A stretch of 64,000 nucleotides of DNA from a virus, in the IMG/VR virus record IMGVR_UViG_3300016469_000277, positions 1-64,000 of that record; one strand, given 5' to 3'. Under the pieces are notes generated by a model. The model ran no database searches, was not told the origin of the DNA, and saw only the letters and a program-made list of their open reading frames with translations. Position 1 is the first letter of the stretch. Every line of letters starts with the position of its first letter. Of this stretch, positions 6,235-53,648 are shown piece by piece. The position numbers and the translations under genes are program-made.

Positions 6235-9200
6235 ATGGCTAAAATAGTTAACCAGCCTAAAGGTGGACCTCCAGTAATGAGGACTGATGAACGAATGAAG
6301 ATGTTTCTTCAATCAACAGAGCCCCCAATAACAGATGCCGATAAAGAAACTTTAAACCTTAGAAGTAAATTAGTTAAAGGAGGAGACCCTGAACTCCAAA
6401 AAGAATTTGGTTACTTAGCTAAACAAAAACAACTTCCTTTTCCTGAAGTTGCTGATCCTAATTATAAGTATGACCAAGCAATTAATAGGCTTATAACAAA
6501 AAGAAATAACGGAACAGCTAGCGCAAAAGAATTACAAGTACTTAATTACCATTTTAAAAAACAAAACGAATACCAAAACAAACTTCTTCAAAAAGATGCA
6601 AGTCTTCCTGATGTAGGGACTCAGTTGTTAAATTCTTGGAAAAAAGATTTTCCAACATTAGAGGATTATAAAAAACAATCTGTTGAACAATCTGGATTTT
6701 TACCTTCTGACTTTATTGGAGACCCAGAAAAAGCAAAAGAACTAAATGAAGAAATTACTTACAAACTTCAGCTTATTCCTCAACTATACAAAGAAAATAA
6801 TTACGAAGCTGTAAAAGGTATCCAAAGAAGTATAAGTGATTTACTTGCAGAAAATTCAGATATTTTTCCGCAGTTTAAAACTTATAACACTTTAAATCTT
6901 ATTAGTCAAAAAGCTGACATTATTAAAGCAAGACAATCTATTAATAATGCCGCAGCTAGTAGGAATAGAAGTTTAGGAAATCAACTAGCTACTAAGCTAG
7001 GAGGACTTCCTACAACACAAAAAGCACAAGAACTAGAAGGGGCTTTTATGGGAGTATCGCAGCTCTCTAATATGCAGTTCTCTGTTCAAGATTATCTAGC
7101 AGGAAAAACAGGACCTATGGGAGCAGAAGATATAATTAATCTTGTGCCTATTCCTAATAGTAAGTTTAATCAACTTACTCAAAAATATCTAGGTAAAGAC
7201 CTTGCTACTCCTAAGTCTATTATGGCAGACGAAAAAGAAAGAGGGAGAGTAGCTTTGAGTAGCGGTCTTGAAATGCTTAGTGAAAGACCTGGAGATTTTT
7301 ATTCAGCAGAAGCTTTGCCCGCTTTTCTTCAAAATAAAGAGGGGTTTCTTCAAACTGAAAAATACCAAAGAGCTGCTATAGATGCAGAAGAAACTTTTAA
7401 AAATGCTACTTTAGCGGATTATTACGATCAGTTTTTAGAAACTAGAAGAGAAAGGGCTAATCTTTTAATTTATAAAAAAGATCTTATAGCTCAGCACAAT
7501 AGAGCTAATGAACTAGCTAAACAACTAGGCAGACCTCCTCTTCCTATGTTAGAGACTGAAGATGTTGATAACCAACTCGAAGATTTAGATTTTCAATTAA
7601 GAGACTTAGAAGAAGAGATAGAGAACATTAAAACTTATAATCCAGAAGAAAGGTATAAAAAAGAATACCCTTTAGCTTATGCCTATAAACAACAACATGA
7701 TTATGAGTCTGCTAGATTTAACACTCCTGCAAGTTTAGGCGCAAGTATTTTTGACTTACTTACTCCAAGTTTTTTACAAAGACCCGGAAAACAAGTAACT
7801 GTTCAAGAAAAACTTAGCATGGCTATTGCTCAAGGGTCTAAACAAATTTATGATCGTTGGCAAGACCTTGACTTATCAGGAAGTATCACTTCTGCATTAT
7901 TTAAAGATAGTGAAAGAGATAAGGCAAAAAGAAATCTTTGGCTTCAAACAGGAAAATATAATTCAGAAGGTTATACTATAGGAATTGATGAAGAAGGAAA
8001 CCCTGTAAAATCAGGACAATTCTTTTGGACAGACAAACAAGGTAAATACCATTTTAACCCTTATGCTACAGTAGAAAGCGGATTACCTGTAGCTGAACAA
8101 ATGCTTGAAACTATTCTTTTAGCAGAAATTGGGGGAGCCGCTTTTGGTGTAGGTTCTAAAATAGCAGGAGGCGCAATAGAAGCAACAGGCATTTCTACTT
8201 TAGGTAAATTAGCTGCTGGAGATATAGCTAGTGCTCTCTCTTTAGACGCAGCTCAATTAGCTAAACTTTCAAATGTTGCTAATAAAGGTAAAGTCTTACT
8301 ATCCCCTGGGGTACAACAAAGGCTTTTGACCTTTGGCTCTGTTATGGCTACTACTTATCCTTCTATCTATCAAGAAGAATATAAAAACTTTAAAAACCCT
8401 GTAGATGCAAGAGACGTAGCTTTACTAAGAGCAAGTATCGAGAGTATAAGTGAATCTGTTATTCCTAACGTAGCTAGTCTTTACACTAAAGGAACAGGGG
8501 CTTTTCTTGGAATAGGAAGAAGCTATCGTTCTCTTTTAAGAGATGCTGTAGAGGGAACTACTCAAAAAATGTTTCCTGGGGCTACAAATAAGTTTGTTAG
8601 AAAATTTGCAGACTCTCGTTTTGGGCAAGCAGTAGGAACCGCAGGAAGATACATAAAAGAAAAAGGAAAAGATTTATTTCAAGAAGCAGTTGTCGAAGAA
8701 GAAGCAGCTTTATTTGGTAATTATTTTGTAGATAAAATAGCCAAACAAAAAGATTCTTCTTATGTAATGCAGAATGAGCTTACTGCTAGTAATATACTAA
8801 AAACAGCTATAGAAGCTACTGCCGGAATGTTAATCACAGCCCCTTTTATGGGAGGTGGTACAACTAGAGCAAGAAACTATGATATTGCTTCTGCTAGATG
8901 GCAAGTAGCTAATAACCCCGAAGTTTTTAAAAGTTTAGCAACTGCAGACTTTGAAGCTGGCAAGTTAACTAAAGAGGAGTATGTTAACAAAGTAGCCAAT
9001 ATTAATATGATGGCGGAGGAGTTAAAAAATCTTCCAATTAATATAGGCTCTATTAGAGACTTAGACACACTTCTTGAAGATAAAGATGCTCAACTTGAAT
9101 ACTACTCTAATTATCTACAGAAACAAGCTTTAAATAAACTAGAAGCTGAGAACCCTGAATTAGCTGCAGAGTATAAAGCAGGGACTAAAGATATTTCTGG

Positions 9201-12200
9201 TATATTTAAAGAAACTAAAGTTACAGAAGAACAAAGAAAAGCTTATGAAGAGTCTGTAAAAGACATTGATAAGAAACTTTACAAAACTGAAAAACTAGCA
9301 AGTATCTACGATAATCTCACTTACGAGCAGAAAGAAGAAATAGTTGCTAAAAACTTTCAAAGAAAATATGAAAAGTTAGTATCTCATGAGGACTTGTCGC
9401 CTTTACAACTAGCTATGGTAATAGCTCAGCATGAAAAAGATTTAGAAGATAATCCTGAAACTTATGCTGTTCAAAACCAAGCTTATATAGAAAGTCTTAA
9501 AAATTCTTTAGGAATTGTACGTAGCAACTTTATGGACTTTATACGTAACAATAACGACAACCTAACTTTTGAACAACTTGACTATAAACTTAACTTTTTA
9601 TTACAACCCAACTCTGTCTTTCTTGGAGAAAATGAATACCGACTAGCTGCTAAAGATTTAAGCAGAAGAATGGCTTTGTCTGTAGGCCCTTACGAAGAGA
9701 TAGAAGATGAGAACGAATTTATTGAAGTAGTAGCTAGAAACTTTGTAACAAGTAAGTATAGTGAGATCCCTTTAACTTCAAACGGCAAACCTCTTTTAGT
9801 TAAAATGATGGATAATTATGTTAACGAAAAGTTGTTTGATAAGTTTGTTGAGGGCCTACCCAAAGAAGAAAGAAAAGCAAAACAAGATGAACTTTCTGAA
9901 AAATTCTTAAAAAGAGTAGTTGAATTAAAACAAACTCTTAAAGAAGGACAAGCTTTTCCAGAAATTACTAGTGTTCTAGAGGCTAAAAAAGAAGAAGAAG
10001 CTAAAAAAGCAAAAGCACCAGAACCTGCTGCAGCTCCTCAAGTAAGAGAAAAATACAGAAGTATTTATGAATCTTACAAAGAAGCTAAAGAAGCCTATAA
10101 TACAGAAGATGCCAACATATACGAAAGTATGGCTGCTGCAGAACTTCTCAAAGAAGCAACTGTTGAAGAACTCTTAGCTGGTCTAGAATCAGTTAAACCT
10201 ATTTTTGAAGATGTAAATGTAGCCAAAGTTATTGAAGACATTCAAAACGGAAACACAGCTTCTTTAGAATCTCTTTTGACTAAAAAAGGAGTAACTAAAA
10301 AAGCAATAGCTGAATTTAAAGATAAGTTATTTCCAGAGATAACTGTGCAGCTACCAGAAATAGTTGTTGAGGAAGAAACCGCAGATGGAGCCCCTGAAGT
10401 AGAAGGACTAGTAGAACTTTCTGAAGAACCTACAGAAGCTGATGAAGAAAACGAAAACCGAGTAAAAGTTACCCAAGAAAAAACCAGACAAGAGTATCTT
10501 GAACAAGATAGACCTAACCAAGTTTACTTGGGAATAACTGACACAGGCTTTGATGAAGACAGAAGAGAAGATCCCAACACAGACTTAATTTATAGTCTAG
10601 TAGATCGTATCCAAAACAGCTTAGCAGAAACTAACCTTAGAGCTTTGGGCTACCACTTGTTAATGAAGTCTGACAAAGACATCTTAGCACTTGTAGGCAT
10701 TACTCCTGAGTATAAAGAAGATTACGCATCATTTAGAGCACAGTTTATTATTAACGGTATTCCTGTTAGAAGCGAAGCAACTATTGCTTATTATCATAAA
10801 AACTTTGACTTATTTGGAACCTACAAAGTAGGAATTATAACTGACAGCAATCAAAGCCCTCTTTATTTTGATAAGAGTGGTCAAAAAGTAAAAACAGGAA
10901 CTCCTATTATTGTTAATATAGGACAACCTGGAGAAGGCCCAGGTAAAGAGTCTGATAAAAAATTCAAAGAAGCTATCCCACCTCAAGGACAGTTTGTTGC
11001 TCTTTCTAGTTTTATTAACGGAGCAAATGTTGGAAGAGAAAAAATAAAGTCATCTGTAGTAGGACAACTTAGACTTATTGTAGGCCAAAACGAAACCGTT
11101 ACAGCAGAAAGCGGAAAGTCTTACACTCTCTATAAAGGAGTAGCATACTTACCCACAGGAGACGTTAACTTCCCTTATGTCTCTACTTATACCCCTAGCG
11201 TTACTAGAAACACTGCAGTGGAAGTTTTAGCTCTTGTTAAAGCATTTAACGAGATGACTAAAAATCCTGAAGCATCTACTTTGCCTGAATACTTTAAGAG
11301 TATGACTTTGCAGGAATTTCATAATTATCTTAATGCTTATGTTTATATTCCTGACAATAGCAAAGAAAACAGTTGGGGACTAGTTCAAACTAAACGCAAA
11401 GGAGAAACTGAAAGATCTCACGTTAAGTTCTTTGTAAGATTAGAAAATAACAAAGCAACGGTATCTTTAAGCGAAGAAGATATTCTTAATTTGCTCTCTG
11501 GGTCCAAAACTGAAAAAGGAACTATCTACGCTGGTATACCTAAAGACTTCTTTAACGAAGGTAGAACCTTTAGACCATTCACTGTAGAGGATGGAAAAAT
11601 AAAAGTAGGTAAAATTACTCCTTTTAGAAATTGGTTTGCTCAAAGATCCACTATAGACAAGTACTCTAAAACTAGACCTAATAGAAATCTTGCTTTTCAA
11701 AAAGAAGACGTTGTAACCTTACAAGCTCCTACAGTAACTAAAGAAGCTCCTGTTTCTGATATAATTACAGATGATGTTTATAATATTTTTATAGATAAAA
11801 ATATTGTACCTGATAATATTTTAAATTCTATTGCAGATAAAATAATTGCTCGTGCATCATTGTCTCAAAGAGAAACAGCAATTTTTTCTGGTAAGACATC
11901 AGAGATAAATGAAATAATTAGAAAAAAAGCTCCTACAGCAGCTCCTGTTTCTGATAAGAAAGCTGATATAGAAAGAAGAAGAGATACAGTATTAGCAAAA
12001 ATTACTCGTATTTCTGGTCATGGAACAAAAGGTATTAGGTGGGTAAGTTATGAATATACTGAAGAGGGTAAATATAAAAAAGGATATAGTTTTAGTAGTG
12101 ACTCTAAAGAAGAAACAATTAAATTAATCAATGATAAGTATAATGAAGAACTAGCTGCTTTAGAAGCTAAACCTGAAGCCCCTAAAGTAGAAACTAAAGT

Positions 12201-15200
12201 TCCAACTATTGAGATTGGTAGATATGTTCAATACTCTGCTGATAAAGAAACTTACATCATAACAAAGCTTAATGCTAACGGGACTATCCAAATCTACAAT
12301 CCTACCAAAGAAGGAGCAGCAGCTAAAAAATCTGTATCTGCTAAAAACCTAACTCCCCTAGAAGAGATAGGTAAAATAGTAGAATATAGAGATGCCAACT
12401 ATCTTGTTACCCCAAAAAACACCATTATATCTCTGACTACTAATAAAGTAATGCAGTGGGCAGAAGGAGATGGTAACAGAAAAGCAATACTTGCTTTAGC
12501 TAACCAAGCACCCCAAGCTCCCGTTATTACTCTAGTAGTTGAACCAGAAAATCCTGCTGCAGAAACAATTGAAGCAGCGCTTCAAAGTAGAATAGAAGAA
12601 CCTACTTACGTTCCAGAAAAGAATGATGAAGTGTCTTTTACTTACTACGGTAAAGACTATACAGGATTATTTATAAGAAAAACTCTAGACAATAATTACG
12701 TTATCCAAGTTCCAGGTGAAGGACAAAAAGAATTTATAGCTAGTGCTGTTTCTAATATTACTAAAGTAACAGAAGAACCAGATTTACCTACAGACTTTGG
12801 ACCTCTTGAAAGACCTAAATATTTAGGAAACTTTATTTCTCCTGTACAAAATGAAAGAGCTCGTACTTGGACTAACACTATAGGCAAGAAAATCTTTGGT
12901 GAAGATAGACTTATCTTTGAACAGACTTTATTGCACCCTAGTGCGTATGCTGTTTGGAGTAAGGCTGCTACTAGACTGTTTAAAGATTCAAACTATGCAG
13001 ATGTATATCACGAAGCTTGGCACGAATTTACTCAAATGTACTTTACCGCAGAAGAGAGAAAAACTCTTTATGATAGAGCAAGAAAAGTTTACGGAGATTT
13101 AACTGACATAGAATTAGAAGAAAAACTAGCTGAAGATTTCCGTCAATTCATGCTTACAGGAGTAATGCCTGAATCTATTCAAAAATCAAAAGAAGCCAGA
13201 AATATTTTCCAAAAGATTTTAGACTTCTTAAGTAACTTCTTTACCAACAAAAAAACTATTGACCGGTATTTTAAAAACTTAGCCAAAGGAAAAGTAGGAA
13301 GAAGGGTTGACTTCCCTCAGTTTAAAACTTTGTATTCTGCTAAGAAATTAGTACTTAAAGAAAATAACAAAAATGTTCCTCTTTCCTTCCAAGAGACTAA
13401 AGGGTATCTTGATCTTATAGATCAGTTGTTTCTTTATGTAGCTAACGAAGCAGGAAAACAAAGAGGGGGTACTTATGTAAACATACTTTACAATCCTAAA
13501 GAGCTTAATAATGTTTACAATGCTGTTTTTAATTACATAAAAAAATTAAGAGGTGAGGCTAAAACTACACAAGATTTTGTTGCTTACAACGAACTTACTA
13601 GATTAATAGGCCCAGAAAGTACTAACTTTAATAGACTTAAAAATCTACATTTCCGTTACTCTCCTTTGTTTACTACTGCTATTAGATTAGCTGCTCGTGA
13701 AGCTCAAGAAGACGAACAAGGAGCTCAACAAGGTAAAGATGCTTTTGACCAACAAGAAGACGGAGTTTTCTTTAGTGATAAATCAATTACAGAAAGATCC
13801 CAAGAAGACTACGCTGAACCCTTAATTATCAATCTTATCTATGCACTTCCATTAATAGAGAATGGGGAAATAGTTTATAACAGTTTAACTGGTGCTCCTA
13901 TTTTAGGAGAGTTTGAGACCAACTGGAATATCCTTAAAAACACTCTTCAAAATTCTCCATCTTACGATGATATGCTAGATAAGATAAAAACTCTAGCAAA
14001 AGATTTTTCTCAATTTAATTCTTTGTTAGAGCTTCTTCCTGCTAAAGGCCCAATTAAAAGAGCTTCAGACCAACAATTAAGAAATCAGTTTTATAATGTT
14101 TTCTCAATGGGGAGAACCCCAGGCGTATTTGCTAAATTTGGGGCTAATGGAAAATTCTCTGTAAGTAATACGTCTAGCTTAGACACTAAAGGAGTTAAAG
14201 ATATTTGGTTAGTTAATTTTAACTCAACCAAAGATGGGCTTTACAAACAACTCTCTGCAATTACAGGTAACTACAGACTTGACGCAGAGGCTTTGTTTGA
14301 AGCATACCCAGAAGCCCCTAAAACTCCAGAAGGTATGTTGTCGTTCTTAGGAGCCATTGGATTTAATTACGCCCAAAAATCTCAAGAAGACTTTATTAAA
14401 AACGCTAGCAAGTACGAAACAGCGGTTTATTATATTTATACAAAACTCAAAAGTTATCATTACTCTACTGATGAGGAAATCTTTGACCCATTTACTGTAA
14501 TTAGTACTAGGCATTCTTACGAGGAAGACGGAGAAACTAAATCTTACGCAGGACAAGGAAGATACTTAAACAACCTTGTTCAAGTAGAAGTAGATAGTAA
14601 CCCAGCTTACGCTAACGATATGGTAATTGTAGCAGACGGCACCACTCAATATATGGTTAACCCTCCTACTTACCAGACTAAAATTATCAATGCGTTAAAC
14701 GATACTAGATATGAATACTTTGAAGACTTGTTTGCGCCTTACCCATTTTTAGATCCATCTAGAAACTGGGGGCTAAAAGGTTCTGCTGATATAGATTATT
14801 TGTTTGATTTTAACAACCCTGTCAAAGTAGGCAATGAAATTAAACATCCTAGAAAAAGAACTGAAAACATACCTAACTCTCTAGAAGTAGTAAACCTACA
14901 AGGTACTCAATCAGACATTTCTATAATGAACAAAAAGACAATTGATCTTTCTGACGCAGAAAAACATTTGTCTGATATTAGAACTCTTCTTTCTCCTTAT
15001 GGTAGAACAGAAGAAAACAACCGTATTGGTGAAAAAGCCACAACTCGCGGCAAGAGAATTACTTCTGATAAATACTTCTTATTTAATCCTAACTCATTTT
15101 TAAGAGTAGATCCTCAACGGGGGAGATTGTTTTCTCCTAAGCCCGAAGTTTGGGATATAATCTTTAACTATATTAAAGCTGAAGTAGAAATCACTAATAA

Positions 15201-18200
15201 AAATTCTACCTCTACAAGATTTAATAAACACAAGTATACTAACGGAGTTCCTAACTTAGCTTTCTTTTCCCACATCTTAAGTGACGAATTAAGAACTAAA
15301 GTTTACGATTCTTTAACTAAAAACCCAGTAGAAGACAACCAGGATTTTCCTTATGCAAAAGAAGTAGCAGATGAGTTTTTAAATTGGGTTAAAACTTTAA
15401 CAAAAGCTAGTAGGATAAATGTTCTTTCTAAACTAAAAGAATCAGAAAATAAAGAAACCGACTACTATGTAGAAGATTTTGACTTAGTTAGGTATCACTT
15501 TATTTCTTTTATTCATCGTGTAGAACAGTTTAAACTATTTAACTACCATCCTTACTACTATAAGAATGCTGCTGATGTAGCTAAACGTATCTCTGGCGCA
15601 AATGCAACAGGAAATTACCCAGTAGTAGATAAAGAAAACGTAGACTTTGTAAACTCCTCTCTTAAGTTAAATGGCTTTGAGTCTTTTAAAAAGTATGCAG
15701 AGCATGAAAACATTACTATACTCCCAAGAGAAGGAGACAATCCAACTACAGAATTTACCTATATAGTATTTAAAGACACTCCTGTAGATTCTAAAACTGC
15801 AAAAGAAAACAGAGAAGACTATGGAAATAATGGCCAGTATTATATAAACGAAGAACGTGAGTCCCCTGCAGATACTCAAGACGCAGCTTCTATACTTACT
15901 TTGGATACGTTTAAGAAGTTCTTTTCTATGGAAGGTAAACTTGATAAAAGTCTAAGTTTAGAAATCCAACGCCAAGAAAAAATATGGACTAACTTAATTG
16001 AAACTAAAATTAACCCTGATAATGCTGAAGCAAGACAGAATCTTTTAGATGCTCTTAACGAGGGTCCTTATTATATTTTTTCTATTAAGAAACTTCAGTA
16101 TTATGGACCTGGATATAAAGAAGTAGAAATTGTTCCTTTATTCCATAAGTATTCTAATAAAGTTCTTCTTCCTTCTGAAATGGTAGATAATGAAGAATTA
16201 TTTAACCTAGCAGTTAAACTTTATTCTTCTAATGCAGATTACGGATTATTTGGCTCTGCTACTAAAATTGCAGAAACTATTTCTCCAGTAGACTTCATTA
16301 CTGAAGAAGGGACTATAGACATTACCCCGACTAAAGCAGGTGTAGCTGATTTAAGATTTCTCAAAGAACAACAAGAAGTAGAACACAAAGAAGATATGCT
16401 TATCATCTTTGCTACTCAGTTTAGAAAACTCTTGTTTAGGGATATGGATACTCCTAAAGAAAGAGAGTTGTTTGCTACATATAAAGAACAAGTTGAAAAA
16501 CTAGTAGACTATGATAAAGGCCGTTTCTTAAAAAATATCGAAGATAAAGAACTTGCAGTAGAATTCTTAATTAATGCTTTAAGTAAAAAGAATGTAGATG
16601 CTTATACTCTTGATTCTATAAAATATAATGAGTACACCAAGGATCTTCAGTACTCTATGGACTCTATCTTAAGTAGAGTGGTTGCTGAGAGTGCTTTGAT
16701 GTCTGAAACAAGAAAAGCTATTGTTCGTCAAAAGTTTTATGGAAGTCAGTTTGTACAATTCCCTGTTAGTGTTATTCGCCCTGGTAAGAAATTAAACTTT
16801 TACAGAAAAAAGAATGGGGAGATACTTCCGGCTGAATGTATTATTGCCTTCTCTCCTAAGTATTATTCTTTGTTTAGTCTTCCTTTTGATAAAAATACCA
16901 CTATTGGAGAACTAGACGATAAAGGTAAACCTGTCAATGTTTATGAAGGGTTAAAGCGTCTTAACCAAAAACTTGCTGAAGATCCTTCTTTTAGAGAAGA
17001 CAACAAAGAAGCTTTAAGACTAGCAGGTGTACGTATCCCTGTACAAGGGTACAACTCTATGGAATACATGGAAATAGTAGAGTTTTTGCCTGAAGAATCT
17101 GGGGATATGATTTTGGTTCCAGACGAACTAGTAGTAAAATCAGGAGGTGATTTTGATATTGACAAACTCTTTATGTATGAGCCTGTCTTGAGGGACGGTA
17201 AATATTTAAGCGAAGAAAACAGAATCGACTTAAGTAAAGAGTTAGAAAAAATAGAAAAGATTAAAGCAGAGAAAAAAGACAACCAAAAAACTAGGGAAGA
17301 ACTCCAAGAAATTGCTGACACCTTTAAAACCACTGTAGATAAACTTAAAGAAAGTCTTGGTTACGAAGAAATCGAAGAAGTTGCTGACGAATCTAAAAAC
17401 GATCCCATAGAAACTGTTAAAGCTTTGTCTATAGCAGAAGAAAGAAAACTTTTACAAAACCAACTCCTTACTACTATTAAAAAACGTCTTTCTCAGCCTC
17501 AAATCTTTGAAGACCTAATTGAACCTAACAACGTAAACAATATTAAAGAAGGTGCAAAAAATGCCCCTGACTATCTAACAAGCAACTTTAACAAAAACAC
17601 AGTTGCAAACGGAAGAGAAATCTGGTCTAATGTTGTTAACCCTCTTTACCAGCTTTATGTATTCCAGTTAGCTAGTGCTAAAAAGATGGTAGGTATTGCA
17701 GCAAAAGGAGGTACCTTTTTAACTTCTGCACAAGAAGCTAAACTTAATATTATCCAGTTTGAGGCTACTTCTCAAGTATATCTAGACGTACATAGAAATG
17801 AAAAGAACGAAATTGAACTTTGGCGCATAAAAGACGTATCAGGTGAAAATAAAATAAGCCAAATAAACAGTGAGGCTATTTCTGGTTCAGTAGATATTCT
17901 TAAAAATGATGACATCTTAAGAATCAACTTTACTCCTGGAACTATTCCTGTGGTTCTCTATCTTAACAGTATGGGGGCTAGAATAAAAGATGTTCAAAAA
18001 TTTATTGGAGAAGAACTTATTTATAGATACGACAAAGGAGAAACCTTCGAAGATTTGCTTTCTGAGTACCCTGAGCTTTTGACAAAATACGGAGTATTTG
18101 ACCAATATGGAGTTTTTGTAGAAAAAGCAACGGTTACAAAAATTAGCAAAGCAATTAAAAAGAATGATTTTTTAACCGACGAAACTGACGAAGGTAAAAT

Positions 18201-20898
18201 AAAAAGACTTGCTAACTTTATTGTATTAAAGAATCAGCAAAGCGAAAACATCACTCCTTTAATCAATACAGTAGACTATGATACTGCCAACTTCCAAAAC
18301 TTTGAATCAATCAGAAGAAAGATAAACGAATTAGATGATCTTAAGAAGAAAAGGTTCTTTAACGCAGATGCTTTAGAGAAAATAATCAAAAAATCCGTAG
18401 TAGCTCCTTTTGAAATTCAAGAAGATGTTTTAGACAAATTTGCTGAGCTTTTCCCAATTTCCGCAGAAAGAGCATTCACCAATACTATTATTAGACAATA
18501 CAAAGCTGCCAAACGACTTCCTAAAAATAAAAAACTTTCTTATGAATCATTCTCTAGAAGGTATAAGAATGAGTTTATGACTGCTGTTTGGCAAACTATC
18601 TCTTCAGAGGCTAATGACTATATCAAATATTTAGAAATTGGAAACGAAGACAATATAGTTGAAAAACACAGAAGATTAAAAGTAGAAGCTGCTAGGCTAG
18701 GAATTAACATTCCTCTTTTAGATACTGTTATGTTTACTTCTGCAACTGGCTCTGCTTATGTGGCTCCTGGTATGAGAAGAAGTGAAAGTAACTTTGATGT
18801 AGATTCTTGGAAAGAAAACTTTAACAACAACCTAGAATACACGTTACCAGAAGATTTTGTAACGGAAAAGAATTTCTTGCGCGAAGACTTTGAAGACGAT
18901 GTAAGAGAGTTTTTTGAGATCTTGGCTTACACCGGAATACTAACTTCTAGATTAAGTAAAACTTACAGTTCTTACTTGACTATTACTCCTGAACAAATCT
19001 ACACTCCTATAGTTGACAAGAAACTAAGAACTTTAGGTAAAGCATTTAAAGAGACCTTTGAAAAACAAAAAGAACTTAATGCTAAAATAACCAAAGAGAT
19101 AGCAGAAGCCGAAGCAAAATCTCCAGAAGGAGTTATAACTCAAGCTGTAACTGAAGAAATAACAGACAAATACAACAAAGAATTTATTCAGTGGGTACAA
19201 TCTCAACCAAACTTCTTTGAAGAAGCTCCTACTAGAGCTGCAATTTCTACAGCTCCCATAACAGCAGAAGAAATTTATACTCAACTAGGTAACAAAACTA
19301 AATCTGAAAATGTAGTTATTAAACCTTGGGGGGAATTAAAAGATGCCACAAGACCAATAACTCCAGAAGGCATTGTTTCTACAAGAATTAAAACTACTGA
19401 TTATAATTTTGGTAATATTTTTTCTCACCAATTTTCAGGAAATTTAATAAAAACAAAAACCGTTAAAGAAGCAGTAGAAAGGTATATTAATTGGGTAATT
19501 ACTGGTGAAACTGGAGAGTATGTTTTTACAGGAATACAACCTGAAGAGATAGAAGAAAAAAGAAATTGGTTATTAGAACAATTAAAATCAGGAGAACTAA
19601 AAGGTAAACCTATTCTTTACTATAAAGAACTTGGAGAACCTTCTCATGCTACAGCTTTAGATTACCTTATTAACAAATACGATTGGTCTAAACCTACTAC
19701 ACCTACTGTAAGTGAAGGTATTGAAATTAATTCTAAGCAAACAGGATTAGGAAATGATTTAACAAATGTACATTATGCTACAAATGGTAAATCTAAGTTT
19801 GATATTAGACCTTCTGATGCTTCTTTAACACTAACACCTGAAGCTAAAAAAACATGGGGAGAATCCGTAGAAGCTTGGTACAAATCTAACAATGCTAAAT
19901 CTAAAGGCATTCCTGAAGGAACAGAAGGAGATGCTTATGATATGAAACTTATGATAGGATTAATAACTGATAAGTTAAAACAATATCCTGATTTAGTTAC
20001 ACAAATTACAGAAAGAGGAGGTTTAGCGTTTTTAGATAAATCTACTCACACTATGGGAACTGGTAGATGGAGTAGTAAAAATCCAAAAAATATGTTTATG
20101 AATGCTTTAAAACAAGCATATCGAAACGTATCTACTACACCTACTGTAATTACTTCTACTTTAACTAATGTTAACTTCTTAGAAAGGTTCCGTCTGCGCT
20201 TTATAAATAACAACCCAGACATATTTAATACAGATTTTAAACTTAAACCTAACCCTTCTTTAAAGTATTACAAAAACTATAACTTAAATGAAAGTGATGC
20301 TTCTGTTCTAGCTTCTTACCCTCCTTTGGTTACTACAGACAAAATAACTTACGCAGATGAAGCCGCTTCAAAAGCAATGCTTGAAAGAGCTCCATTTGAA
20401 GAACCAGAGAAACTCCCGGCCATTGAACTAGAAGTTATTAATAAAGCTAGTAAAAAGTCAACTTACTCTATTCCTTCTATTGCAGGAGAAATTATAGAAA
20501 AAGAAGGATACAAACTTGATATTCCAGGTTATCCTAATGTATCTTTGTATTTAACTAATCAATCATTATTTACAGAAGAGGGAAAAACAAGACTAGTTAA
20601 ACAAAATGGTTGGATGGTAGATGTCGCCTCTTTTGGGGCTATGTCTCCAACAGTTTACAAAAATCTAACAGAAGCAACAGAAGCAATAAAAGATAAAGTA
20701 AGAGAAGTTTCACAGGATCCAGAAAAAAGAAAAGATCTTGAAAGAATAGGATTCACAGAGGAAGGACAAGTATTCCCCTTAGTTGAAAACCCAGGAACAA
20801 ACCTTTCTACTACTACTAATCCAACTGCTTACGATTCAGATATTGTAAACGAAGTAAACAGCAAACCCACAGACGAATCAGAATGTAATATAAGCTAA
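6235..20898 (+). CDS. Giant virion-packaged DNA-dependent RNA polymerase (crAss type) fused to N-terminal membrane-interacting region, zincin domain and accessory inserts
   Basis: GGDFDIDK (17143-17166) and RIPVQG (17032) as in phi14:2 gp66-type RNAPs; HEAWH...EEKLAEDF zincin motif (13009); Gly/Ala hydrophobic segments at ~8100-8350. Confidence 0.92.
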   Translation: MAKIVNQPKGGPPVMRTDERMKMFLQSTEPPITDADKETLNLRSKLVKGGDPELQKEFGYLAKQKQLPFPEVADPNYKYDQAINRLITKRNNGTASAKELQVLNYHFKKQNEYQNKLLQKDASLPDVGTQLLNSWKKDFPTLEDYKKQSVEQSGFLPSDFIGDPEKAKELNEEITYKLQLIPQLYKENNYEAVKGIQRSISDLLAENSDIFPQFKTYNTLNLISQKADIIKARQSINNAAASRNRSLGNQLATKLGGLPTTQKAQELEGAFMGVSQLSNMQFSVQDYLAGKTGPMGAEDIINLVPIPNSKFNQLTQKYLGKDLATPKSIMADEKERGRVALSSGLEMLSERPGDFYSAEALPAFLQNKEGFLQTEKYQRAAIDAEETFKNATLADYYDQFLETRRERANLLIYKKDLIAQHNRANELAKQLGRPPLPMLETEDVDNQLEDLDFQLRDLEEEIENIKTYNPEERYKKEYPLAYAYKQQHDYESARFNTPASLGASIFDLLTPSFLQRPGKQVTVQEKLSMAIAQGSKQIYDRWQDLDLSGSITSALFKDSERDKAKRNLWLQTGKYNSEGYTIGIDEEGNPVKSGQFFWTDKQGKYHFNPYATVESGLPVAEQMLETILLAEIGGAAFGVGSKIAGGAIEATGISTLGKLAAGDIASALSLDAAQLAKLSNVANKGKVLLSPGVQQRLLTFGSVMATTYPSIYQEEYKNFKNPVDARDVALLRASIESISESVIPNVASLYTKGTGAFLGIGRSYRSLLRDAVEGTTQKMFPGATNKFVRKFADSRFGQAVGTAGRYIKEKGKDLFQEAVVEEEAALFGNYFVDKIAKQKDSSYVMQNELTASNILKTAIEATAGMLITAPFMGGGTTRARNYDIASARWQVANNPEVFKSLATADFEAGKLTKEEYVNKVANINMMAEELKNLPINIGSIRDLDTLLEDKDAQLEYYSNYLQKQALNKLEAENPELAAEYKAGTKDISGIFKETKVTEEQRKAYEESVKDIDKKLYKTEKLASIYDNLTYEQKEEIVAKNFQRKYEKLVSHEDLSPLQLAMVIAQHEKDLEDNPETYAVQNQAYIESLKNSLGIVRSNFMDFIRNNNDNLTFEQLDYKLNFLLQPNSVFLGENEYRLAAKDLSRRMALSVGPYEEIEDENEFIEVVARNFVTSKYSEIPLTSNGKPLLVKMMDNYVNEKLFDKFVEGLPKEERKAKQDELSEKFLKRVVELKQTLKEGQAFPEITSVLEAKKEEEAKKAKAPEPAAAPQVREKYRSIYESYKEAKEAYNTEDANIYESMAAAELLKEATVEELLAGLESVKPIFEDVNVAKVIEDIQNGNTASLESLLTKKGVTKKAIAEFKDKLFPEITVQLPEIVVEEETADGAPEVEGLVELSEEPTEADEENENRVKVTQEKTRQEYLEQDRPNQVYLGITDTGFDEDRREDPNTDLIYSLVDRIQNSLAETNLRALGYHLLMKSDKDILALVGITPEYKEDYASFRAQFIINGIPVRSEATIAYYHKNFDLFGTYKVGIITDSNQSPLYFDKSGQKVKTGTPIIVNIGQPGEGPGKESDKKFKEAIPPQGQFVALSSFINGANVGREKIKSSVVGQLRLIVGQNETVTAESGKSYTLYKGVAYLPTGDVNFPYVSTYTPSVTRNTAVEVLALVKAFNEMTKNPEASTLPEYFKSMTLQEFHNYLNAYVYIPDNSKENSWGLVQTKRKGETERSHVKFFVRLENNKATVSLSEEDILNLLSGSKTEKGTIYAGIPKDFFNEGRTFRPFTVEDGKIKVGKITPFRNWFAQRSTIDKYSKTRPNRNLAFQKEDVVTLQAPTVTKEAPVSDIITDDVYNIFIDKNIVPDNILNSIADKIIARASLSQRETAIFSGKTSEINEIIRKKAPTAAPVSDKKADIERRRDTVLAKITRISGHGTKGIRWVSYEYTEEGKYKKGYSFSSDSKEETIKLINDKYNEELAALEAKPEAPKVETKVPTIEIGRYVQYSADKETYIITKLNANGTIQIYNPTKEGAAAKKSVSAKNLTPLEEIGKIVEYRDANYLVTPKNTIISLTTNKVMQWAEGDGNRKAILALANQAPQAPVITLVVEPENPAAETIEAALQSRIEEPTYVPEKNDEVSFTYYGKDYTGLFIRKTLDNNYVIQVPGEGQKEFIASAVSNITKVTEEPDLPTDFGPLERPKYLGNFISPVQNERARTWTNTIGKKIFGEDRLIFEQTLLHPSAYAVWSKAATRLFKDSNYADVYHEAWHEFTQMYFTAEERKTLYDRARKVYGDLTDIELEEKLAEDFRQFMLTGVMPESIQKSKEARNIFQKILDFLSNFFTNKKTIDRYFKNLAKGKVGRRVDFPQFKTLYSAKKLVLKENNKNVPLSFQETKGYLDLIDQLFLYVANEAGKQRGGTYVNILYNPKELNNVYNAVFNYIKKLRGEAKTTQDFVAYNELTRLIGPESTNFNRLKNLHFRYSPLFTTAIRLAAREAQEDEQGAQQGKDAFDQQEDGVFFSDKSITERSQEDYAEPLIINLIYALPLIENGEIVYNSLTGAPILGEFETNWNILKNTLQNSPSYDDMLDKIKTLAKDFSQFNSLLELLPAKGPIKRASDQQLRNQFYNVFSMGRTPGVFAKFGANGKFSVSNTSSLDTKGVKDIWLVNFNSTKDGLYKQLSAITGNYRLDAEALFEAYPEAPKTPEGMLSFLGAIGFNYAQKSQEDFIKNASKYETAVYYIYTKLKSYHYSTDEEIFDPFTVISTRHSYEEDGETKSYAGQGRYLNNLVQVEVDSNPAYANDMVIVADGTTQYMVNPPTYQTKIINALNDTRYEYFEDLFAPYPFLDPSRNWGLKGSADIDYLFDFNNPVKVGNEIKHPRKRTENIPNSLEVVNLQGTQSDISIMNKKTIDLSDAEKHLSDIRTLLSPYGRTEENNRIGEKATTRGKRITSDKYFLFNPNSFLRVDPQRGRLFSPKPEVWDIIFNYIKAEVEITNKNSTSTRFNKHKYTNGVPNLAFFSHILSDELRTKVYDSLTKNPVEDNQDFPYAKEVADEFLNWVKTLTKASRINVLSKLKESENKETDYYVEDFDLVRYHFISFIHRVEQFKLFNYHPYYYKNAADVAKRISGANATGNYPVVDKENVDFVNSSLKLNGFESFKKYAEHENITILPREGDNPTTEFTYIVFKDTPVDSKTAKENREDYGNNGQYYINEERESPADTQDAASILTLDTFKKFFSMEGKLDKSLSLEIQRQEKIWTNLIETKINPDNAEARQNLLDALNEGPYYIFSIKKLQYYGPGYKEVEIVPLFHKYSNKVLLPSEMVDNEELFNLAVKLYSSNADYGLFGSATKIAETISPVDFITEEGTIDITPTKAGVADLRFLKEQQEVEHKEDMLIIFATQFRKLLFRDMDTPKERELFATYKEQVEKLVDYDKGRFLKNIEDKELAVEFLINALSKKNVDAYTLDSIKYNEYTKDLQYSMDSILSRVVAESALMSETRKAIVRQKFYGSQFVQFPVSVIRPGKKLNFYRKKNGEILPAECIIAFSPKYYSLFSLPFDKNTTIGELDDKGKPVNVYEGLKRLNQKLAEDPSFREDNKEALRLAGVRIPVQGYNSMEYMEIVEFLPEESGDMILVPDELVVKSGGDFDIDKLFMYEPVLRDGKYLSEENRIDLSKELEKIEKIKAEKKDNQKTREELQEIADTFKTTVDKLKESLGYEEIEEVADESKNDPIETVKALSIAEERKLLQNQLLTTIKKRLSQPQIFEDLIEPNNVNNIKEGAKNAPDYLTSNFNKNTVANGREIWSNVVNPLYQLYVFQLASAKKMVGIAAKGGTFLTSAQEAKLNIIQFEATSQVYLDVHRNEKNEIELWRIKDVSGENKISQINSEAISGSVDILKNDDILRINFTPGTIPVVLYLNSMGARIKDVQKFIGEELIYRYDKGETFEDLLSEYPELLTKYGVFDQYGVFVEKATVTKISKAIKKNDFLTDETDEGKIKRLANFIVLKNQQSENITPLINTVDYDTANFQNFESIRRKINELDDLKKKRFFNADALEKIIKKSVVAPFEIQEDVLDKFAELFPISAERAFTNTIIRQYKAAKRLPKNKKLSYESFSRRYKNEFMTAVWQTISSEANDYIKYLEIGNEDNIVEKHRRLKVEAARLGINIPLLDTVMFTSATGSAYVAPGMRRSESNFDVDSWKENFNNNLEYTLPEDFVTEKNFLREDFEDDVREFFEILAYTGILTSRLSKTYSSYLTITPEQIYTPIVDKKLRTLGKAFKETFEKQKELNAKITKEIAEAEAKSPEGVITQAVTEEITDKYNKEFIQWVQSQPNFFEEAPTRAAISTAPITAEEIYTQLGNKTKSENVVIKPWGELKDATRPITPEGIVSTRIKTTDYNFGNIFSHQFSGNLIKTKTVKEAVERYINWVITGETGEYVFTGIQPEEIEEKRNWLLEQLKSGELKGKPILYYKELGEPSHATALDYLINKYDWSKPTTPTVSEGIEINSKQTGLGNDLTNVHYATNGKSKFDIRPSDASLTLTPEAKKTWGESVEAWYKSNNAKSKGIPEGTEGDAYDMKLMIGLITDKLKQYPDLVTQITERGGLAFLDKSTHTMGTGRWSSKNPKNMFMNALKQAYRNVSTTPTVITSTLTNVNFLERFRLRFINNNPDIFNTDFKLKPNPSLKYYKNYNLNESDASVLASYPPLVTTDKITYADEAASKAMLERAPFEEPEKLPAIELEVINKASKKSTYSIPSIAGEIIEKEGYKLDIPGYPNVSLYLTNQSLFTEEGKTRLVKQNGWMVDVASFGAMSPTVYKNLTEATEAIKDKVREVSQDPEKRKDLERIGFTEEGQVFPLVENPGTNLSTTTNPTAYDSDIVNEVNSKPTDESECNIS
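11745..11956 (+). repeat. 17-bp in-frame direct repeat AGCTCCTGTTTCTGATA bounding a 65-codon unit
   Basis: Copies at 11745-11761 and 11940-11956, each preceded by AAGCTCCTACAG (11723, 11927). Confidence 0.9.
19694..20149 (+). repeat. 18-bp in-frame direct repeat CTACTACACCTACTGTAA bounding a NADAR-like domain
   Basis: Copies at 19694-19711 and 20132-20149; offset 438 nt = 146 codons. Confidence 0.9.
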
Positions 20899-20899
20899 A

Positions 20900-23800
20900 A
20901 TGGCCTGTAGACAAGATATAAAAACCGCAATACTAAAAAAAGTATACACTAACTACATAGAAGGAAGACCTACCTACGGTAAAGTAGAGGATGGTCTTTT
21001 TATAATAACAAGTCAAAAGTATACAAAAGGTAAATCCAAAGCAGCAAGCTTAAATCAAGCTTTATTCATTGCTAGAGAACTACGTACTTTAATTGTTAAA
21101 GACTTTGGCAATAACTTAGAAGTGAATATTATTCCTCCTGAGTTTGTAGGAATTCCTGTTCAAGTAAGAGTAGCGCCTACTTATGAGTATATAGAAAAAC
21201 TTTTCTCTCAAATTGACCCAGACAAAAGAACTGAGTTTGTATCTAGAGAAGGGTTTCTTCAAAACCCCAACTTGCTTGAAAGACAGATTCTTGAAGAACT
21301 TCAAACTAAATTTATTCCTCAAGCCGACTTTATAGCCCAACAAATAAGAAAAGAAACAGACTTTATTATTTATAATGATTTTAGAAGAACTTTCTTCCAA
21401 GACCAAGCTTTATACGAACAAGAACTAGCGGAAGACCAATATCTCAGACTTGCTAAAAAACTTCCTCCTCCTATTTTAGGAGAAAAAGGCCAGTATAAAC
21501 TTTTTTCTAAAGTAGATAAAGAAGAAGTTGAGTTACTTACCGAAACAGTTGCTGCTGACCTTTTTAACTTTTTAAAAGAAAAAACTGGTTTAGCAGGCAA
21601 TGTAATAAATGATAAATCTCAAAAGTTTAAAGGCGCTGTTATAAATGGAGTACCGACAATAAATGTAGCCTATGCAGAATTAAGTGATGGGTTTCATGAG
21701 TATCTGCATCCAGTTATGATGTCTTTGAGAGTTTCTAATCCTAAACTTTTTAATAAACTTTATAACGATTTAAAGAGTTTACCCCAATGGAAAACAATTG
21801 CAGATAAAACACTGGATAGAGTGCAAAAACTTTATCCCGAACTTAAAAATATTGACGATTTTATGGAAGAAGCTTTAGTTACTGCTTTAGGGTATGCTTC
21901 TGAATTAAAATCAAATAAACAATTAGAGACAGTAAAATCTAATAGACCATTTCTTGATTGGGCAAATAATTTTTATAAATGGTTAACAGAGTTTCTACAA
22001 GGATTATTTATTAATACAGTAGATCTTTCCAGAGTAGGATTAAATACTACATTAGAAAATATAGTAGAGTGGATGACTGATACTAAGACAAGGATACTTC
22101 TAGCAGAAAATTGGCAAACCCTTGTAAACAGAGAAGAAAATATAGACAAACAACTAGAAGTTACAGAGGTAGACACTCTTAATTCATTAAGTAATAGTTT
22201 ACTTTCGGAGTTAGTTAGAGTAGATAAAACAGAAACTTTAGAAGAATACATAAACAAATGGGTAGAAAAAAAATTTAAACTAAGACAAAAAGAATATGTA
22301 CCTAAAAAGTTTGATAGAGAAAGTTTTGCATACAAAGAAGCTCAAAACTTGATTGCCACTGTTGCTACTTCAGGTTATAACTTAAATACTGAAGAAATTA
22401 AAAAACTTCCAGAAAGCACCTATCAAAAACTAGCTCAGGTAATTGAACAATTAGATTTAAGTTTTAAATTTAGTCTCTGGTTAGATAAAAAAGGAAATAC
22501 TGTAATTGCTTTAAACTCACCTTTTAAGCCAGATAATGTTCCTTCCGCTGAAATTGTAGCTGTAGATCAATTTAGAAAATTTTTACTAGAAAAATATCCA
22601 GAAAAAAAATCACTACCTGCAAATGAAATAGCTATTGAGTATAAAACCTGGGCACAAGAAAACTACGGGCTAAATGTTACTGATGCTACTGGATATGAAA
22701 GTTATGGTTTATCTAGACTTACTACTTCTTCAACTAAAAATAAAAATTACACTAGGAAGTTATTTCTTGATGATTATTTAATAAAACAAGGACATACATT
22801 TCAATTAACTTCTGAAGTGACTGGAAATGGTTTAGGTTGGTACGCATCTGTAGATATTAATAATGATGGTTTTGACCACGAGTTTCAATCGGATGTTCTT
22901 CCAGAAATTAATAAATCTTATAAAAAAGATGAATACAAATCACAAACCTATCAATTAAAAACCTCTTCTGCAAGAGAACTTGCAGAGATGGTGGCTAGAA
23001 ATAAAGTGCAAAAAGAACTTTCGTTTAGTCTAGATAGTAAAATAGCTAATGTATTAAATAATGATTTTGATTTTAGTATGGATTTAGACGTAGTTAAAAA
23101 CTATTTAATTTCTGAAATAGATGTATCTAAAGAACAAAGTTTGATGTACGGAAAAGTCTCTTCAACTTTACTAGGGTGGAAACTTACTAATAAAATTATA
23201 CTTACTTTAAAATTTCCAAAATCTGAAAACTTTAAACAATTAGAATCTTGGATAAATAAATATATAATAATTGAAACTGCTAAAGAATCAGAGTTTTTAG
23301 AAAATAGAAAATTAGAAACTGAGATGGTAGATTTGCCTTTTTCTAAAATTGCAAAAAAAATATTTCTTATGTCAAAAAAAGATACAGATAATTTCCATCA
23401 TAGTTATTATTTATCTCCAGAAGGTTTTACAAATTTACCAGAATTTTTAAAAATAGAAGTAGATAGGCATAATGCTTGGCATCAAAGTAAAGATCCATTA
23501 AGACCAGATATGCCCGCAACTATTAGTACACTAGCTGTTGTTTTTGGGCCTCACGTACATTCTTTAAATATAGCCACTTTGTATCCTTACTCAACTAAAA
23601 AACTGAGAAATTATTGGCAATTATCTAGTAGACTATCTAATGTATACTCTGTAGCTAGTGACCAAATTACTAAAACTTTTAACAAGTATAAAAAAGCAAA
23701 AAAGATTCTTAGCGGAAGTGATTTTAGAAAAAAACTTTATGAAGATACAAATAACATAGTTAAGATTCAACAATATTGGAAAAATCAATATGAAAGGTTT

Positions 23801-24565
23801 TTATCTTTTTACACTAAAGAGTACGAATTTGTAAAACAAGAAGCTCAAAACCAACTAACTGAAAAAAGTTCAGAAAATAGAGAACAGTTTTACAAAAAAT
23901 ATGTAGATATTTATAAAAAATGGTTTGATATTACTATTCAACACTCTGTAAATACTAGAAAACTACAAGGAAGAAATTATTACTATCTTCCTACTAGTCA
24001 AGCAATGGAACTAATTGAAGGTAATACTATTGCAGCTCCTCTTTATAGAAGTATTTTTGAAGTAAACAAAGAATTAACAAATTACACTCGTCACACTTTG
24101 GCTGGTTACATACAACAGAATACCCAAGAAACTACTACAGAAATTCAAAAATATTGGCCTCAAATACATACAGTTATAAATCAAGACTCTACTGTTTTTG
24201 ATATAGCAGATGCTCTTATTGCAAATACTGATTTTGTAAATAAAAGTGAAAGTTATAAAGATTATGCTTCTAAAGAAGTAGCTCTTGCAAAAGTTTCTTC
24301 TGTTGGACCTTTTTACACTGCACTTTCAAAGTTTGCCAAGAAAAACAACATCAAGTTAACTTATGAACAACCAGATTGGAGTAAAGCTGCCTTAATAAAA
24401 GTAGATCTTACTAATTATGAATATAAACCAATTGATCGTTTTTCTAAAGTAATACCCACTGCAATTGAAAAACCTTCAGACAAAAAAATAGAAGAATTTA
24501 ACGAGCTTACCTCTATCCCAGAAGTAAGAGGAGAAATATACTTTCAAACAAAAAATTGTAAATGA
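20900..24565 (+). CDS. Large polyvalent virion/ejection protein with zincin-like metallopeptidase domain
   Basis: FHEYLH (HEYLH at 21695) plus downstream EEALV; HEFQSD motif; only Cys at residues 3 and 1220. Confidence 0.7.
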   Translation: MACRQDIKTAILKKVYTNYIEGRPTYGKVEDGLFIITSQKYTKGKSKAASLNQALFIARELRTLIVKDFGNNLEVNIIPPEFVGIPVQVRVAPTYEYIEKLFSQIDPDKRTEFVSREGFLQNPNLLERQILEELQTKFIPQADFIAQQIRKETDFIIYNDFRRTFFQDQALYEQELAEDQYLRLAKKLPPPILGEKGQYKLFSKVDKEEVELLTETVAADLFNFLKEKTGLAGNVINDKSQKFKGAVINGVPTINVAYAELSDGFHEYLHPVMMSLRVSNPKLFNKLYNDLKSLPQWKTIADKTLDRVQKLYPELKNIDDFMEEALVTALGYASELKSNKQLETVKSNRPFLDWANNFYKWLTEFLQGLFINTVDLSRVGLNTTLENIVEWMTDTKTRILLAENWQTLVNREENIDKQLEVTEVDTLNSLSNSLLSELVRVDKTETLEEYINKWVEKKFKLRQKEYVPKKFDRESFAYKEAQNLIATVATSGYNLNTEEIKKLPESTYQKLAQVIEQLDLSFKFSLWLDKKGNTVIALNSPFKPDNVPSAEIVAVDQFRKFLLEKYPEKKSLPANEIAIEYKTWAQENYGLNVTDATGYESYGLSRLTTSSTKNKNYTRKLFLDDYLIKQGHTFQLTSEVTGNGLGWYASVDINNDGFDHEFQSDVLPEINKSYKKDEYKSQTYQLKTSSARELAEMVARNKVQKELSFSLDSKIANVLNNDFDFSMDLDVVKNYLISEIDVSKEQSLMYGKVSSTLLGWKLTNKIILTLKFPKSENFKQLESWINKYIIIETAKESEFLENRKLETEMVDLPFSKIAKKIFLMSKKDTDNFHHSYYLSPEGFTNLPEFLKIEVDRHNAWHQSKDPLRPDMPATISTLAVVFGPHVHSLNIATLYPYSTKKLRNYWQLSSRLSNVYSVASDQITKTFNKYKKAKKILSGSDFRKKLYEDTNNIVKIQQYWKNQYERFLSFYTKEYEFVKQEAQNQLTEKSSENREQFYKKYVDIYKKWFDITIQHSVNTRKLQGRNYYYLPTSQAMELIEGNTIAAPLYRSIFEVNKELTNYTRHTLAGYIQQNTQETTTEIQKYWPQIHTVINQDSTVFDIADALIANTDFVNKSESYKDYASKEVALAKVSSVGPFYTALSKFAKKNNIKLTYEQPDWSKAALIKVDLTNYEYKPIDRFSKVIPTAIEKPSDKKIEEFNELTSIPEVRGEIYFQTKNCK
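21502..24451 (+). repeat. 13-bp in-frame direct repeat TTTTTCTAAAGTA (FSKV) bounding a 979-codon unit
   Basis: Copies at 21502-21514 and 24439-24451; AT-rich, so chance is not excluded. Confidence 0.55.
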
Positions 24566-53637: not shown

Positions 53638-53648
53638 ATCTGATTTAT

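Follow-up and report, generated by a model that had tools for sequence, protein, structure and literature searches.

How can a phage protein of several thousand residues gain or lose a domain without losing its reading frame? The question is raised by a 64,000-nucleotide stretch of viral DNA (the window; positions 1 to 64,000 of IMGVR_UViG_3300016469_000277, a 108-kb, ~94%-complete IMG/VR virus record with a G+C content of 34%). In it, the giant open reading frame (ORF) P0001, which by its motifs appears to encode a crAss-type virion RNA polymerase (RNAP) that is fused to accessory domains (a polyvalent protein), and the gene that follows it contain exact direct repeats. An earlier note on this DNA had listed three of them (17, 18 and 13 bp), with offsets that are multiples of 3, and had read the linkers they encode as sockets in which domains are gained, lost or swapped in frame. 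All three repeats are present at their positions and none can be extended; the socket reading stands for the units bounded by APVSD and TTPTV, and has to be abandoned for the one bounded by FSKV. We consider it probable that P0001 holds two in-frame cassettes which move laterally, exchanged with the guidance of homology, and that the 17- and 18-bp repeats are their duplicated linker ends. The features in question are as follows.

6235–20898, plus strand: giant ORF P0001, 4887 amino acids (aa), from the ORF list and its translation
11745–11761, plus strand: left copy of the 17-bp repeat 1 (APVSD), exact; left end of cassette 1
11762–11939, plus strand: body of cassette 1, a predicted 57-aa four-helix module with an APTA linker, from comparison and an AF2 model
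11940–11956, plus strand: right copy of the 17-bp repeat 1 (APVSD), exact; here cassette 1 ends on the right and the next module starts
19694–19711, plus strand: left copy of the 18-bp repeat 2 (TTPTV), exact
19712–20131, plus strand: body of cassette 2, a predicted NADAR-fold domain (domain B), from an AF2 model and fold search
20132–20149, plus strand: right copy of the 18-bp repeat 2 (TTPTV), exact; right end of cassette 2
21502–21514, plus strand, with its partner at 24439–24451: 13-bp repeat (FSKV), at chance level and bounding no cassette

Codon shuffles of the three giant genes of the region (P0001 and the following P0002 and P0003) served as the model of chance. Exact repeats of at least 13 bp form 49 pairs versus 28.6 expected, and those of at least 17 bp 2 pairs versus 0.24; pairs of at least 15 bp lying at most 500 bp apart are expected 0.13 times, and the 17- and 18-bp repeats, with spacings of 195 and 438 bp, both belong to this class, being the two longest in the three-gene region. 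Judged by these expectations, the 17- and 18-bp repeats are non-random and the 13-bp pair is ordinary. Among the 26 exact pentapeptide repeats of P0001, just APVSD and TTPTV agree in DNA at 15 of 15 bases, the other 24 showing from 1 to 6 base differences, and the probability of an identical choice of codons is ~1.8% for each of the two. Neither linker sequence has a further occurrence in the window. The exact 17-mer is found in IMG/VR 32 times (25 in frame); this count was rejected as evidence, since a common pentapeptide written in preferred T-ending codons could, by a rough estimate, match tens of times by chance, and only the contexts of the matches were used.

Both repeats do lie in Pro/Thr/Ala-rich linkers, as the earlier note had it, and its impression that the enclosed DNA is poorer in C-ending codons than the RNAP core is borne out by a count of codon composition. 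Such codons make up 0% of unit 1 (the minimum among all 65-codon windows of the gene), 3.9% of cassette 2 (residues 4487–4638, both linkers included) and 5.3% (0.1 percentile) of the block formed by domain B and the preceding domain A, the value for the RNAP core being 15.7%. By their codon composition, unit 1 and the NADAR unit are compositionally foreign.

Filled and empty states of a site became visible with the locus L029, retrieved when IMG/VR was scanned for exact copies of the 18-mer. Its giant ORF is 5'-partial and 95.9% identical over 3185 aligned aa to the giant protein P0033, from which it differs by exactly 146 codons (TTPTV plus the NADAR domain), the same period as in the window: L029 reads YSRWSKP-TTPTV-TTEVKE, and P0033, whose filled allele is known from the protein only, reads YSRWSKP-TTPTV-[domain]-NVS-TTPTV-TTEVKE. 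The empty site holds a single copy of the identical 18-mer, and 28 nucleotides (nt) of it (WSKPTTPTV) equal the left junction of the window. The earlier note had proposed to test whether indel breakpoints in orthologues fall in the repeats and to look for precise single-copy junctions; the former is seen in this 146-codon indel at the 18-mer, and the latter in the empty allele of L029, an assembled contig. Four orthologues are without the whole block of domains A and B (see below).

A second pair of loci, L013 and L014, are giant open frames from different samples, found in the metagenome scan. Their similarity is limited to a tract of 503 bp (98.4%), the flanks being unrelated in both DNA and protein; the tract consists of an exact 24-bp repeat (TTQSSTSV), a NADAR-like domain and the identical 24-bp repeat, and the homology runs from the first base of the left repeat to just after the right one. 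Compared at this level, the pair appears to be an independent replicate, in another lineage, of the repeat-bounded NADAR cassette. Linkers vary among lineages (TTPTV, TTQSSTSV, APVSD) and yet are identical within one cassette, which argues for an origin at the level of DNA and not for one shared peptide signal.

The cassettes thus compared are shared, at 89–98% DNA or protein identity, across backbones that are unrelated or 25–50% identical, and four comparisons show a common tract of which one end or both coincide with the repeats. As to cassette 2, the DNA of domain B is 94–96% identical to that of the loci L001, L002, L009 and L018, and the homology to all four ends exactly at 20149, where repeat copy 2 ends. 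Syntenic giant proteins whose core is 25–29% identical to P0001 in aa are encoded by L001 and L002; to both loci, the window is 94.4% identical in DNA over 19862–20149 and 84% over 19581–19828, and away from the cassette region it shares with them a single stretch of ~110 bp at 69–74% (12948–13068). Between L001 and L002 the identity is 71% overall, yet complete over ~840 bp aligned around the NADAR module. P0033 (4650 aa, with a backbone 33–48% identical to P0001) carries linker, domain B and linker at 97.5% aa identity; in the window the cassette is followed by a backbone block, whereas in P0033 it comes ~130 residues after that block, and hence at another site. Altogether domain B matches 249 cluster representatives, many of them giant proteins, in N-terminal, middle or C-terminal placement, and is promiscuous.

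As for cassette 1, copies of unit 1 with 64–82% identity occur in five giant proteins (P0009, P0182, P0029, P0030 and P0183). Beyond the module region, four of these share with P0001 only short stretches of the RNAP core, and in P0030 the module region is the only similarity. The unit is also present in the loci L007 and L008, the available ORF parts of which match P0001 nowhere else. The DNA of L008 is 88.7% identical to the window from 11745, where repeat copy 1 begins, to 11974; the upstream DNA is unrelated, the homology fades ~18 nt past repeat copy 2, and the unit is flanked there by APVSD and ISVSD linkers of its own. The search proposed in the earlier note, for the units in unrelated giant proteins with the same linker DNA, was thus positive. 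Unit 1 is absent from the orthologues P0004, P0005 and P0006. In P0004 and P0006 a single linker leads directly into a KADIERRR/AGIERRR module, where the window has linker, unit 1 and linker; in P0005 the site is occupied by an FtsK-gamma-like module, which in P0183 lies immediately before unit 1. In 8 of 8 copies unit 1 is preceded by a PVSD/STD-type motif, which in many proteins also stands before the KADIERRR module and behaves as a shared adaptor. The AF2 model of unit 1 consists of four helices (pLDDT 73); its fold search gave a best Z of 3.8 and no recognisable fold relative, comparison with Pfam gave just noise at E 0.1, and ESM Atlas no usable match. A by-eye assignment to the LuxR or sigma-region-4-like helix-turn-helix was dropped, the recognition helix being missing.

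Two further sites of exchange lie next to the cassettes.

11956–12168, plus strand: module KKADIERRR ... YNEELAALEA ("clamp") around a variable insert, from sequence comparison
19240–19692, plus strand: domain A, residues 4336–4486, from comparison
19210–19222, plus strand, with its partner at 20173–20185: near-repeat AACTTCTTTGAAG (NFFE), left flank of the insertion of domains A and B

The clamp is formed by two conserved helices (KADIERRR ... AELAALE) around an insert, and unrelated inserts are found in it in the window, P0004, P0006, P0007, P0015 and P0019. Next to the 146-codon indel there is just one other difference between P0033 and L029, the insert between "PVSDKKADI" and "DA(K/E)L-ALEGKPEV": that of P0033 (~1867–1960) is replaced by a non-homologous one in the ORF of L029 (~551–700). 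The clamp is, as far as these alignments indicate, a second type of socket. As to domains A and B, the colinear, ~50%-identical orthologues P0004, P0005, P0006 and P0007 are without residues 4335–4646, and on either side of the insertion the alignment leads to one and the same segment of P0005 (DFLDK, 4335–4343). Domain A is absent at this site from P0004, P0005 and P0006, and P0007 has a 35%-identical copy in its other hotspot; domain A stands before domain B in L001, L009, L010, L012 and L015, but not in L005, L011, L013 and L014. A resemblance of domain A to DUF4326, noticed by eye, was rejected, as the window copy and four homologues give no match to the hidden Markov model (HMM) at E up to 1, and five copies compared with Pfam gave no match. 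The insertion is bracketed by the near-repeat AACTTCTT(T/A)GAA(G/A), NF[FL]E, with 12 of 13 bases matching, which resembles a target duplication and may also be due to chance.

The 13-bp FSKV repeat was taken in the earlier note to bound a unit of 979 codons in P0002. The only homologue of P0002 found, P0184, is 63% identical and colinear over residues 191–1202, with FSKV at both places, and the homology overruns the two sites, beginning 11 residues before the first and extending ~20 past the second. We have therefore rejected the FSKV repeat as a cassette boundary, considering both its chance-level DNA identity and this colinearity. Outside the shared core (191–1202) the N- and C-terminal parts of P0184 and P0002 are different, so P0002 may be modular too. 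A HExxH motif, HEYLH, is present in P0002 (20900–24565).

What do the cassettes bring with them? The AF2 model of the 140 enclosed residues of domain B (pLDDT 91) matches, by VIA-align, 8bau_A with Z 9.5 (121 aligned, root-mean-square deviation 2.8), 2b3w (YbiA) with Z 8.8 and 8bat with Z 5.7; the next-best chain after these three NADAR structures has Z 3.7, and the top Foldseek match is again YbiA (probability 0.90). The domain thus shares the predicted fold of the NADAR (YbiA) family, while the Pfam NADAR HMM (PF08719) does not match the window copy at E up to 10 and matches 1 of 22 homologues (E 6e-4); a search of the domain B profile against PDB sequences gave nothing meaningful. Because the HMM is unmatched, we label domain B NADAR-like, a model-based assignment of fold and not of sequence-level family membership. 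Canonical NADAR (PF08719) is present in the related giant proteins P0007, P0011 and P0031. NADAR is the hydrolase partner of DarT1 (PMC11543638), and domain B may play a counter-defence role by stripping ADP-ribose from DarT-modified DNA. In L005 (IMGVR_UViG_3300034356_001365, nt 6457–9099) ~880 aa come after the NADAR-like domain within one giant ORF, and they include a RecD-like P-loop helicase (GTGKTT ... DESSM).

The mechanism that we propose starts from the form linker, domain, linker, of which the single linker copy in other giant proteins would be the empty socket. During co-infection, short-homology recombination or single-strand annealing would pair the linker DNA of donor and recipient and insert the domain together with one linker copy, so that the domain would come to lie between direct repeats and the frame would be kept. 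Loss would proceed by recombination or replication slippage between the flanking copies, one of which would stay. The swap of inserts would require an exchange between two different conserved junctions, namely KADIERRR and AELAALE of the clamp. Homology-guided recombination would then be the cause of the breakpoints, and its catalysts could be the Sak4-like annealase and the exonuclease of the phage. The earlier note had listed recombination genes in this DNA, and PHROG matches agree for the Sak4-like, exonuclease and NinG-type ones:

52972–53721, minus strand: Sak4-like single-stranded-DNA-annealing protein (phrog_2872, E 2.8e-63), candidate recombination catalyst
39945–40934, minus strand: exonuclease VIII-like gene (phrog_412, E 6.5e-21)
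46145–46789, minus strand: NinG/Rap junction endonuclease-like gene (phrog_5034, E 2.8e-16)

An endonuclease VII gene is likewise in the window; in the ORF at 43437–44129 (minus strand), a Lar-like restriction-alleviation N-terminal part is joined to an endonuclease VII/HNH-type domain.

Several observations weigh against this explanation. The codons of APVSD are all preferred or common T-ending codons of the genome, and the frequent presence of the 17-mer in IMG/VR can in large part be put down to codon bias. In the comparison with L001, the shared tract begins on the left within domain A and not at repeat copy 1. Five contexts of domain B (L005, L010, L011, L012 and L015) have no flanking repeat, and the homology of their domain to the window stops just inside the window repeats (L005 and L010, which are without the second linker, diverge at 20127–20129, just before the right repeat); repeats are therefore either not required or decay, and they mark some insertions, perhaps recent ones, but not the domain as such. 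Each of the events might be either a gain or a loss, and the single linker of L029 could be a deletion scar instead of an older socket. Phage Rad52-like annealases use short or diverged homologies, the minimal efficient pairing segment of Red-beta being 23–27 bp (PMC3945230); the repeats, of 17–24 bp (28 nt shared with L029), are at or below this minimum, and Sak4, not being Rad52-like, is outside the scope of that study. Finally, all comparisons come from metagenome assemblies.

Part of these observations would also be accounted for by a selection filter, i.e. illegitimate recombination anywhere in the gene, of which only in-frame junctions in flexible linkers survive; the repeats would then be the conserved N-terminal linker motif of each module family, adjacent modules showing the same peptide. 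The motif found before all eight copies of unit 1, and often before the KADIERRR module, is in line with this, as are the preferred codons of APVSD and the repeat-free contexts of domain B, and whether phage mosaics originate by limited homology or illegitimate recombination is still debated (PMC3945230). We nevertheless hold such a filter to be unlikely. It does not lead one to expect DNA identity in just 2 of the 26 pentapeptide repeats of P0001, tracts that end at the outer base of the repeat in independent pairs (above all the 24-bp repeats of L013 and L014, in unrelated contexts), an exact 18-mer kept in the empty allele with 28 nt equal to the window, or linker peptides that vary among lineages with the same domain; base-exact breakpoints and codon-identical repeats argue against random joining plus selection. 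It is decidedly improbable that the linkers are in essence peptide signals, e.g. cleavage sites by which the embedded HExxH peptidase releases domains after packaging or injection, their DNA identity being incidental. Autoproteolytic processing by the metallopeptidase domain was indeed proposed for polyvalent proteins (PMC5512222), P0001 has a HExxH motif, the same peptide stands on both sides of the domains, and such signals would be compatible with cassette exchange by homology. However, APVSD, TTPTV and TTQSSTSV have no common peptide, and since the repeated peptides differ between lineages we have rejected a single protease site for all linkers; moreover, codon-level identity and presence/absence alleles are left unexplained, and one or both linkers are missing in many copies of the same domain.

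As to artefacts, 0.2–0.5 kb at 94–98% identity in co-occurring phages is a classic cause of chimeras, and with every related locus being a metagenome assembly, the shared cassettes might have made assemblers join unrelated phages into contigs with spuriously different contexts. This we can hardly believe for the key cases, where both flanks agree with orthologues: those of the insertion of domains A and B in the window are colinear with the same P0004–P0007, those of the P0033/L029 site are both ~96% identical, the two differing by the cassette and one swapped insert only, and the same arrangement recurs in L001 and L002, which were assembled independently; besides, repeats of 17–24 bp are below the usual assembly k-mer size. 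As regards insertion by homing endonucleases, no internal ORF is contained in the 195- and 438-bp cassettes, and the two short antisense ORFs (130 and 83 aa) within the giant gene are both away from them. Exchange of cassettes through homologous linker DNA is the explanation we prefer.

The gene that hosts the cassettes belongs to a block of three very large, close-packed genes.

17149–17163, plus strand: DFDID, a DFDxD motif by sequence (residues 3639–3643), in a region that aligns to g066 of Cellulophaga phage phi14:2
13009–13023, plus strand: HEAWH (HExxH), candidate zincin-type metallopeptidase motif, by motif only
20900–24565: P0002, 1221 aa, neighbour of P0001
24562–29259: P0003, 1565 aa, following P0002

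Compared as whole proteins with Pfam and PHROGs, the three gave nothing usable (zero matches for P0001); with megablast the 23-kb region matched no GenBank phage, and a first scan of IMG/VR with residues 1500–2300 of P0001 yielded no relative. By tblastn, P0001 is distantly similar to the "catalytic RNA polymerase subunit" g066 of phi14:2 (E 7e-8, 28% identity over 232 aa), and it also matches "RNA-polymerase subunit" genes of several crAss-like phages. DFDxD is given as the catalytic motif of the crAss-like virion RNAP in the preprint bioRxiv 10.1101/2020.03.07.982082. The surroundings of HEAWH are conserved among crAss-like RNAP subunit genes and give no match in Pfam; by this motif the region may correspond to the metallopeptidase domain of polyvalent proteins (PMC5512222). 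Thirty-odd giant relatives, of 2.8–5.3 thousand aa, were found, some of them with precomputed NADAR, AlkB-like 2OG oxygenase, helicase, UVR and FtsK-gamma domains. P0001 itself unites in a single ORF an RNAP motif, HExxH, a NADAR-fold domain and more modules, as is characteristic of polyvalent proteins; its conserved backbone (RNAP and zincin motif) is strung with small accessory domains via Pro/Thr/Ala/Ser linkers, and by analogy with its family it is presumably packaged in the virion and injected.

Two observations concern giant proteins in general. A cysteine within the last 10 residues is present in 77 of the 88 retrieved giant proteins (at least 2500 aa), with 0.7 of 88 expected at the median Cys content of 0.05%, and one of the 2 Cys among the 4887 aa of P0001 is residue 4884, at the C-terminus (20884–20898); it may be a signal of packaging, anchoring or linkage. 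A module of ~95 aa (GRYVxY ... TIISLTTNK ... NGNRKAILALA; window 12217–12501) is common to more than 20 otherwise unrelated giant proteins, with 50–66% identity and mostly near the C-terminus, and was the source of most matches in one of the protein searches.

Giant injected proteins are the first tools that a phage deploys in the cell, and what has been described of their fast domain turnover so far is only a list of architectures. In the present DNA one can see the unit of change itself, a domain between two copies of its own linker, and the alternative between mosaics made by recombination at short conserved linkers and those made by random joining plus selection becomes testable within a single gene. 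Repeat-bounded, compositionally odd segments could flag newly acquired candidate counter-defence domains, of which the NADAR-fold domain with its possible anti-DarT role is an example, and the pattern suggests a natural design rule for in-frame domain swaps in phage proteins. A bolder version, which we put forward tentatively and are inclined to doubt, is that a vocabulary of linker DNA is common to Crassvirales and further phages that have giant injected proteins, and that by means of it the annealase and exonuclease of the phage add, remove and exchange counter-defence domains, keeping the frame, at a measurable frequency within populations; if true, the injected payload would be an integron-style, fast-reconfigurable array of protein domains.

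How does this locus compare with known systems? P0001 resembles gp66 of phi14:2 in its DFDxD motif, in distant similarity and in its location in a block of very large genes, but with 4887 aa versus 2180 it is over twice as long, two hotspots being filled with accessory cassettes. Polyvalent proteins of phages and conjugative elements contain from 2 to 15 domains in highly variable architectures (Iyer, Burroughs, Anantharaman, Aravind 2017; PMC5512222). They have virion-RNAP-type backbones, a zincin-like metallopeptidase and FtsK-type domains and are thought to be co-delivered with DNA, and the NADAR, AlkB-like 2OG oxygenase, RecD-like helicase and FtsK-gamma domains of P0001 relatives fit the same class. 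That work, however, is a catalogue of architectures, with neither "linker" nor "shuffling" in its text and no nucleotide-level mechanism, whereas the exchange unit is defined here in DNA, as linker, domain and linker, with filled and empty alleles. Full-text literature searches retrieved no description of repeat-bounded in-frame cassettes in polyvalent proteins; while these proteins and motif-guided domain swapping are known, the repeat-bounded intragenic form looks undescribed.

Like the gene cassettes of integrons, the cassettes are small and promoterless, have a recurring site and, by analogy only, might pass through a circular intermediate with one junction copy; unlike them, they are protein domains and not genes, their junctions are coding and in frame, and they appear to have neither integrase nor attC (no integrase is present among the 20 replication-module ORFs scanned). 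In polymorphic toxins (Rhs, CdiA, MuF-type) a C-terminal tip is swapped at a conserved junction motif, and silent orphan cassettes are kept in the same genome; there, as in P0001, a short conserved coding motif is the junction for in-frame swaps of alternative domains. This analogy was drawn for cassette-like ORFs in PMC5512222. In contrast to the toxins, the cassettes described here are internal, have the same repeat on both sides and are exchanged among phage genomes, and no orphan cassettes were seen. In Botstein's modular theory, too, short conserved "linker" sequences flank interchangeable modules and guide homologous exchange, the rival view being illegitimate recombination with subsequent selection (PMC3945230). 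In the tail-fibre adhesins of T-even phages, likewise, recombination takes place between conserved motifs. In those cases, though, the modules are gene-sized or the receptor-binding tip is exchanged, whereas in P0001 single domains move inside one ORF and the linker DNA doubles as the peptide linker of the protein.

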